Origin: Escherichia coli
GTDB taxonomy: Bacteria > Pseudomonadota > Gammaproteobacteria > Enterobacterales > Enterobacteriaceae
Length of the DNA stretch: 2,040 nucleotides
Assembly: GCF_003334335.1 (NCBI RefSeq)
Contig: NZ_QOWQ01000094.1
Strand: one strand, 5' to 3'
The position numbers were made by a program, and so were the translations under genes. Of the stretch, positions 974-1,038 are shown in pieces. Every line of letters starts with the position of its first letter. The first letter of the stretch is position 1. The notes under the pieces were generated by a model. It did no database searches, was not told the origin of the DNA, and saw only the letters and a list, made by a program, of their open reading frames with translations.

Positions 974-1038
974 GACAGACAAATGAAGATTAATGTTAAG
1001 GAGTTGTTTTTGTTACTCGGGCAAAAAAACACTAACGC
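941..1038 (-). ncRNA. Candidate small non-coding RNA (~95 nt), antisense to the tail operon, in the I-J spacer
   Basis: Bounded upstream by a minus-strand promoter (-35 TTCACA 1072-1067, 16-bp spacer, -10 TATAAT 1050-1045) and downstream by a minus-strand intrinsic terminator (stem 973-967 / 955-949, then A plus seven U at 947-941). Predicted RNA: GCUGCGUUAGUGUUUUUUUGCCCGAGUAACAAAAACAACUCCUUAACAUUAAUCUUCAUUUGUCUGUCCCCGCAGCUCCGCGAUCACUGCGGGAUUUUUUU. It has no ATG, and no start codon with a Shine-Dalgarno in the right place. The exact 5' end is a guess (purines at 1041 and 1038). Confidence 0.5.

Follow-up and report, generated by a model that had tools for sequence, protein, structure and literature searches.

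Gene content and transcription signals of the locus

The analysed DNA, referred to here as the window, was a stretch of 2040 nucleotides from Escherichia coli. It covered the tail region of a lambda-like prophage, and the gene annotation of matching E. coli regions agreed with this reading (Table 1). Tail assembly gene I and tail tip gene J were separated by a gap of 342 bp. A small RNA gene was located in this gap in antisense orientation and was assigned to pasB, as described below. Gene I was its upstream neighbour and convergent with it. In the matching records listed, the pasB site carried no annotation.

The first-pass annotation had pointed to a CA-rich tract, a CUCCUU string and a U7 stretch in a candidate small RNA. 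All three were present on the minus strand. Positions 1020..990 read CCGAGUAACAAAAACAACUCCUUAACAUUAA on this strand, with AACAAAAACAAC at 1014..1003 and CUCCUUAACAUUAAUC at 1003..988, C1003 being common to both. The heptamer CUCCUUA occurred once in the window (997-1003, minus strand), compared with 0.07 occurrences expected from shuffles. The 3'-terminal seven nucleotides of E. coli 16S rRNA have the same letters.

Based on the promoter-like sequence, transcription was predicted to start near G1038, resulting in a primary transcript of 98 nt. The published PasB 5' end corresponded to position 1023. This gap leaves the 5' end uncertain by 15 nt. The most 5' RIL-seq read start was one base off the published end (PMC8550237). 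A TAGTGT hexamer of the form TAnnnT, at 1034..1029 on the minus strand, was kept in all variants inspected; it may be a second -10 box or may merely reflect conservation of the RNA 5' end. The Rho-independent terminator was the consensus structure obtained with RNAalifold over 19 variants and included one compensatory change from a G-C to an A-U pair.

The GC-rich hairpin beyond the promoter was flanked by T-rich runs on both sides (1140-1180) and was terminator-like on either strand. More than 40 other phage loci carried copies with approximately 92% identity in the corresponding position. Strain E2348/69 had an unrelated hairpin and a plus-strand T-run at this site. The hairpin is a candidate for insulation of PasB, or it may cause pausing of late transcription before J. 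The segment 1100-1277 of the window was kept in most matching genomes and swapped for unrelated sequence in E2348/69. A weak promoter-like element, TTGCCA-18-TATCCT, was observed at 1246..1217 on the minus strand. Together with the hairpin, it may delimit a second minus-strand transcript of about 70 nt.

Table 1. Features of the window and of the strongest RIL-seq partner of PasB. Positions refer to the window unless another sequence is named.
Feature	Position	Strand	Basis or remark
End of K-like C40 peptidase gene	19..357		
Tail assembly protein I gene	255..935	+	ORF; matching E. coli region annotated 'tail assembly protein'
PasB sRNA gene, published 83-nt ends transferred from E2348/69	941..1023	-	Alignment and Northern probe
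Rho-independent terminator: stem CCCGCAG (973..967) / CUGCGGG (955..949), 11-nt loop, A, U7 (947..941)	941..973	-	
Seed region CUCCUUAACAUUAAUCUUCAUUUGUCUGUC	974..1003	-	Unpaired in predicted fold; partner pairing; conservation
A-rich tract AGU AAC AAA AAC AAC	1003..1017	-	Five in-phase A-R-N triplets
U7 run	1023..1029	-	Upstream of, or at, published 5' end
Sigma-70 promoter-like TTCACA (1072..1067), 16-nt spacer, TATAAT (1050..1045)	1045..1072	-	11/12 matches
GC-rich 10-bp hairpin CCCCGGTATC tgct GATACCGGGG	1148..1171	.	Just upstream of PasB promoter
Tail tip / host specificity protein J gene, 5' part, runs off window	1278..2040	+	Reading frame; syntenic E2348/69 gene annotated gpJ
Partner RNA	L002 2483-2665 (NC_011601 743482-743664); L003 1335-1570	plus (L002)	

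Assignment to PasB

Sequence comparison places the flagged tract within an allele of the Hfq-dependent sRNA PasB, which has been described before. The window aligned to NC_011601.1 1466343..1466261 (minus strand) with 81 of 83 bases identical. These coordinates are given in Table S6 for PasB (pathogenicity-associated sRNA B, 83 nt, prophage PP6), which was detected by RIL-seq and confirmed on Northern blots in EPEC E2348/69 in a study that named five prophage sRNAs (Pearl Mizrahi et al. 2021, PMC8550237). The published Northern probe AATCCCGCAGTGATCGCGGAGCT matched window positions 946-968 exactly on the plus strand, and the RNA is therefore encoded on the minus strand. The pasB locus of E2348/69 was located in the same I-J gap with the same orientation. 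Promoter and terminator included, the two sequences differed by only two bases, both within the RNA, over a segment that begins at the stop codon of gene I and extends about 60 nt upstream of the -10 element. The exact probe match, the shared I-J gap and the near-identical sequence identified the candidate RNA as a PasB allele. PasB itself is already known and the entity is not new. As the analysis rediscovered it from raw sequence, a new name is not needed.

In E2348/69, Hfq-dependent stability of PasB was shown by Northern blot (PMC8550237). The log2 change of pasB in the hfq deletion was -6.8 and -2.4 in two conditions (Table S2, PMC8550237). PasB levels were higher in static LB cultures, and the RNA formed Hfq-bound chimeras with many mRNAs (PMC8550237). 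These data on expression and Hfq dependence apply to the E2348/69 allele only, with which the window shares an identical promoter. The view that the candidate RNA is a base-pairing regulator was borne out by its identity with a published Hfq-associated sRNA and by the complementarity of its seed to in vivo partners.

The distribution of PasB was catalogued by Zhu, Shabalina and Storz (2026, bioRxiv 10.64898/2026.05.13.724894). PasB is unannotated in RefSeq and missing from Rfam, although PasB-type sequence was detected with megablast in 961 of 5426 complete E. coli genomes; its I-J gap was present in 1612. The present understanding of sRNA biology is unchanged by this re-analysis of PasB. What it adds in testable form is the predicted position of the seed and its anti-Shine-Dalgarno-like character, an interpretation of the A-rich tract that favours an Hfq handle over a GcvB decoy, and the observation that common pasB alleles differ within the seed.

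Family variants and alleles

An IMG/VR scan with the invariant promoter block yielded 120 loci with 47 distinct RNA variants. Common to the variants were, in order, the -35 region, GCGUUA, a U-run, an (ARN)n run followed by YUCC(U/A/C)U, a variable spacer of a few nucleotides, UUAAUCUUC, a variable stretch and the terminator. YUCC(U/A/C)U and AUCUU were each present in 44 of the 47 variants. Both seed blocks, the ARN run and the terminator were conserved over the 47 variants. The -35 region and the A/T block upstream of it showed no change in any family variant. In all variant groups, the (ARN)n run comprised two to seven triplets and abutted the UCC block.

At least six sequence groups of the small-RNA module between I and J were distinguished in Stx and other lambdoid phages (L004-L008, L018-L137), for example the VT1-Sakai/Sp15 type. 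Promoter, terminator and the UCC and AUCUUC blocks were common to these groups, which differed in the rest of the seed. Several groups were about 75% identical to the window in blastn; a BLAST search with 28-nt words, as in the 2026 PasB survey, may miss them.

Compared with E2348/69, the window allele carried A at both nt 27 and nt 33 of PasB (C27A and G33A), so that CUCCUUAACAUUAAUC in the window stands against CUCCUUCACAUUGAUC in E2348/69. Both substitutions were located inside the first seed block. The exact window allele was rare, with 17 of 962 matching E. coli records. The predominant allele differed from the window by one mismatch and occurred in O157:H7 strains; with the IMG/VR variants as a guide, this allele probably has A27 and G33.

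Seed region and predicted pairing with RIL-seq partners

The seed region comprised the anti-Shine-Dalgarno block CUCCUUA (1003..997) and the conserved block UUAAUCUUC (993..985). In the 2026 preprint, the seed was placed just upstream of the terminator from conservation alone (bioRxiv 10.64898/2026.05.13.724894). No common target motif for PasB was given by the original authors (no pasB entry in supplement file 9, PMC8550237). Ten of the top PasB partner regions from Table S3 of the RIL-seq study (PMC8550237) were re-analysed, with pairing computed for the E2348/69 allele. Duplex energies of 14-nt PasB windows were compared with those obtained for dinucleotide-shuffled targets. Duplexes were predicted by short-window scans, and plain duplexfold on long targets gave meaningless long-loop structures. 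RIL-seq chimeras represent proximity on Hfq and not a regulatory effect.

Excess complementarity over shuffled targets peaked in two overlapping stretches, ACAACUCCUUCACAUUGAUCUUC and GAUCUUCAUUUGUCUGUC. The region from CUCCUU to AUCUUCAUUUGUCUGUC was enriched in complementarity with a combined p = 1.5e-6 in a family-wise empirical test with nine independent partners. In the same test, windows of the A-rich tract showed no excess complementarity to any tested RIL-seq partner (p = 0.98). For napF, 16 contiguous pairs were predicted between CUUCACAUUGAUCUUC and GAAGGUCAAUGUGAAG, reaching from the Shine-Dalgarno sequence through the GUG start codon, with -26.7 kcal/mol and z = -8.4. The predicted tolC duplex had 10 pairs spanning the AUG (UCUUCAUUUG with CAAAUGAAGA), and that of yijD had 11 pairs on the Shine-Dalgarno sequence (UCCUUCACAUU with AAUGUGAAGGA). 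The first seed block was predicted to pair with codons 1-4 of caiF. For hflX, map and rplX, pairing was predicted within the coding regions and not at ribosome-binding sites. The partners detected by RIL-seq also included ftsZ (PMC8550237), which is the classic DicF target.

The napF, tolC, yijD and caiF duplexes support anti-Shine-Dalgarno pairing of the studied allele. An earlier suggestion that CUCCUU pairs with ribosome-binding sites is thereby backed for the E2348/69 allele, by the complementarity to its partners as well as by the duplexes at Shine-Dalgarno sequences and start codons. The analysis supports that the CUCCUU stretch starts the part of PasB that is complementary to ribosome-binding sites. 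In the proposed mechanism, the unstructured stretch from CUCCUU to GUCUGUC would act as the seed. It would bind translation-initiation regions: for napF and tolC the Shine-Dalgarno sequence with the start codon, for caiF the first codons and for yijD the ribosome-binding site. Such pairing would most likely stop ribosome loading and reduce translation.

The predicted pairing of the window allele was weaker than that of the E2348/69 allele by 6-8 kcal/mol for map, yijD, caiF and rplX and by about 4 kcal/mol for napF. It was the same for tolC and hflX. Because the two substitutions are located inside the seed, the targets of the window allele probably differ from those of the studied allele, and the set of mRNAs bound is probably shifted.

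A-rich tract and candidate Hfq-binding elements

The in-phase triplets of the A-rich tract suggest a candidate motif for the Hfq distal face and not a mimic of GcvB targets; a function as an Hfq handle is more likely than one as a GcvB decoy. Other groups, among them the VT1-Sakai copy, had U, G or A at the C positions of the tract. Hence, the CA-rich letters noted in the first-pass annotation are present but do not constitute a specific signal, given these varying C positions and the missing CACAACA motif.

The U7 run had also been considered as an Hfq contact. With the published 5' end at 1023, nearly the whole run is outside the mature RNA. In a single-sequence fold of the 98-nt form, the run and the A-rich tract formed the two sides of a weak 5' hairpin. 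A contact of U7 with Hfq in the mature RNA is thus improbable for either form. Most variants carried a U-run, and the hairpin of U-run and A-tract was missing from the RNAalifold consensus over 19 variants.

PasB would be held on Hfq by the A-rich tract with its five ARN triplets and by the 3' U-tail. An ARN repeat in a single-stranded 5' region combined with a 3' oligo-U tail is also found in the class II Hfq sRNAs ChiX, MgrR and CyaR, and from these elements we infer a class II-like assignment of PasB. Taken whole, the observations are probably best explained by a pasB allele with Hfq anchors and a seed that acts on translation-initiation regions.

Possible prophage cross-talk and possible antisense action in cis

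The strongest PasB partner was an intergenic prophage RNA and not an mRNA start site, which counts against a function at mRNA initiation regions. It was a plus-strand RNA between a nanS-p-like esterase moron gene and the holin gene in prophages PP2 and PP5. In E2348/69, the pair 'pasA.E2348C_0689.IGR'::pasB was represented by 774 chimeras in 3 of 3 libraries with an odds ratio of 24.7 (PMC8550237), about 10 times the number for any mRNA partner of PasB. The PP5 copy of the partner RNA accounted for 54 chimeras. The RNA stops at a strong 11-bp terminator, 50 nt before the holin start. A bipartite 20-bp duplex with PasB was predicted, ACAACUCC, UCAC, UGUCUGUC, with -23.6 kcal/mol. The empirical support for this pairing was modest, however, with p = 0.09 for PP2 and p = 0.035 for PP5, and chimera counts follow abundance. 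The high chimera number together with modest duplex support leaves room for a main role in prophage cross-talk, in which PasB sponges, or is sponged by, the plus-strand moron-holin RNA of co-resident lambdoid prophages. We consider such a main role unlikely; it is compatible with mRNA regulation and does not exclude it. For EHEC, 'convergent sRNA pairs' have been described, and the strongest partner may correspond to their sense member.

A more far-reaching proposal unites PasB with its diverged relatives in a single family of tail-operon sRNAs that have an Hfq-binding ARN tract and a 16S-like anti-Shine-Dalgarno block. The bases between the two conserved seed blocks would be exchanged from phage to phage, with a change of targets, and the main partner in vivo may be, in place of a host mRNA, the RNA upstream of the lysis genes of other resident prophages. 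This proposal is speculative and rather doubtful. If true, prophages could communicate through RNA by way of PasB, for instance with regard to lysis or induction.

Over the I-J segment, PasB is fully complementary to the late tail mRNA of its own phage. It could therefore act in cis, by cleavage of this mRNA, modulation of J or transcriptional collision. At every locus examined, pasB was antisense in the late tail operon, and a conserved hairpin flanked it. However, PasB was abundant in lysogens, when the late genes are presumably mostly silent, and it had many partners in trans. Conservation was mostly found in short seed-like blocks with variable spacers. This pattern fits pairing in trans, since a cis antisense RNA is complementary whatever its sequence. 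A mainly cis function is judged improbable.

Rejected readings as a GcvB sponge or a plus-strand reading frame

The first-pass annotation had suggested that the RNA may be AgvB or a relative. On this view, the CA-rich tract would mimic GcvB mRNA targets, titrate GcvB and derepress dppA, oppA and other transporter mRNAs. AgvB is a genuine prophage-encoded anti-GcvB RNA (PMC4104026). The tract of PasB contained ACAAC, a 9/10 pairing with GcvB R1 was possible by eye, and the best duplex of the tract had -9.5 kcal/mol. AgvB and AsxR of EHEC (Tree et al. 2014, PMC4104026) resemble PasB as short, prophage-encoded and Hfq-bound RNAs with a 5' A-R-N motif and a Rho-independent terminator. In contrast to PasB, which is located in the K-I-J tail region, they occupy a moron site downstream of PR' and are convergent with the moron gene; their size is 51-60 nt compared with about 83 nt for PasB (PMC4104026). 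AgvB carries CACAACA, the GcvB R1 target consensus, in its 5' part (PMC4104026). This motif was missing from the PasB RNA even with one mismatch and was carried by 0 of the 47 family variants.

When the whole window was scanned with Rfam at E <= 1, neither AgvB nor AsxR (RF02702/RF02703, conserved 3' region of about 42 nt) was matched, and Esr41 was not matched either. The sole hit of the scan was sub-threshold and linked a terminator-like hairpin to a Streptococcus family. AgvB is set apart from PasB by the Rfam result and its published description. An identity of the RNA with AgvB, AsxR or Esr41 was rejected on the basis of the Rfam scan, location, size and motif.

Direct evidence for GcvB binding was sought in the RIL-seq data for the E2348/69 allele. 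The sections covered comprised the sRNA-sRNA blocks from the two sheets and the greater part of the PasB block for the non-activating condition. A gcvB::pasB pair was not listed in these sections, and gcvB::sroC had 945-1222 chimeras there. No GcvB-type target such as dppA or oppA was among the PasB partners in these sections. The best PasB-GcvB duplexes of the two alleles had -15.9 and -18.4 kcal/mol and did not outperform shuffled PasB (z = +1.4 and -0.1). Little weight is put on this test because the genuine sponge SroC, used as a control, likewise did not stand out. With the chimera absent from the sections covered, CACAACA missing and the A-rich tract without excess complementarity, the reading as a GcvB sponge or AgvB is already largely refuted and must be regarded as very improbable.

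Equally remote is the explanation that the conserved sequence reflects a 22-codon ORF on the plus strand of the tail operon (983..1051, MKINVKELFLLLGQKNTNAAKL), antisense to PasB, and not an RNA seed: both differences between window and E2348/69 were synonymous in its frame, an N-terminal MKI(N)V(K)EL was recognisable in several variants and a hypothetical protein was annotated at the site in two phage records, but just 26 of the 47 variants had an ATG start codon, 13 had ACG and 8 had none, and the C-terminal parts were frameshifted between groups, so that the ORF is probably not coding and was rejected on start-codon and frame conservation.

Relation to other prophage sRNAs

The preferred interpretation of PasB as an Hfq-anchored RNA with a seed on translation-initiation regions was compared with DicF of the Qin prophage and Esr41 of an EHEC prophage. 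The proposed shared principle is an Hfq-dependent prophage sRNA with a pyrimidine-rich seed on the Shine-Dalgarno sequence or start codon of core-genome mRNAs. DicF and Esr41 showed no homology to PasB, as judged by the lack of an Rfam match, and target regulation by PasB is predicted.

A further observation was made at the PasD2 locus of E2348/69 (L002 128-332). It had a sub-threshold Rfam match to STnc100, with 41.4 bits compared with a gathering score of 47. This match agrees with the relationship between PasD and STnc100 proposed in the 2026 preprint (bioRxiv 10.64898/2026.05.13.724894).
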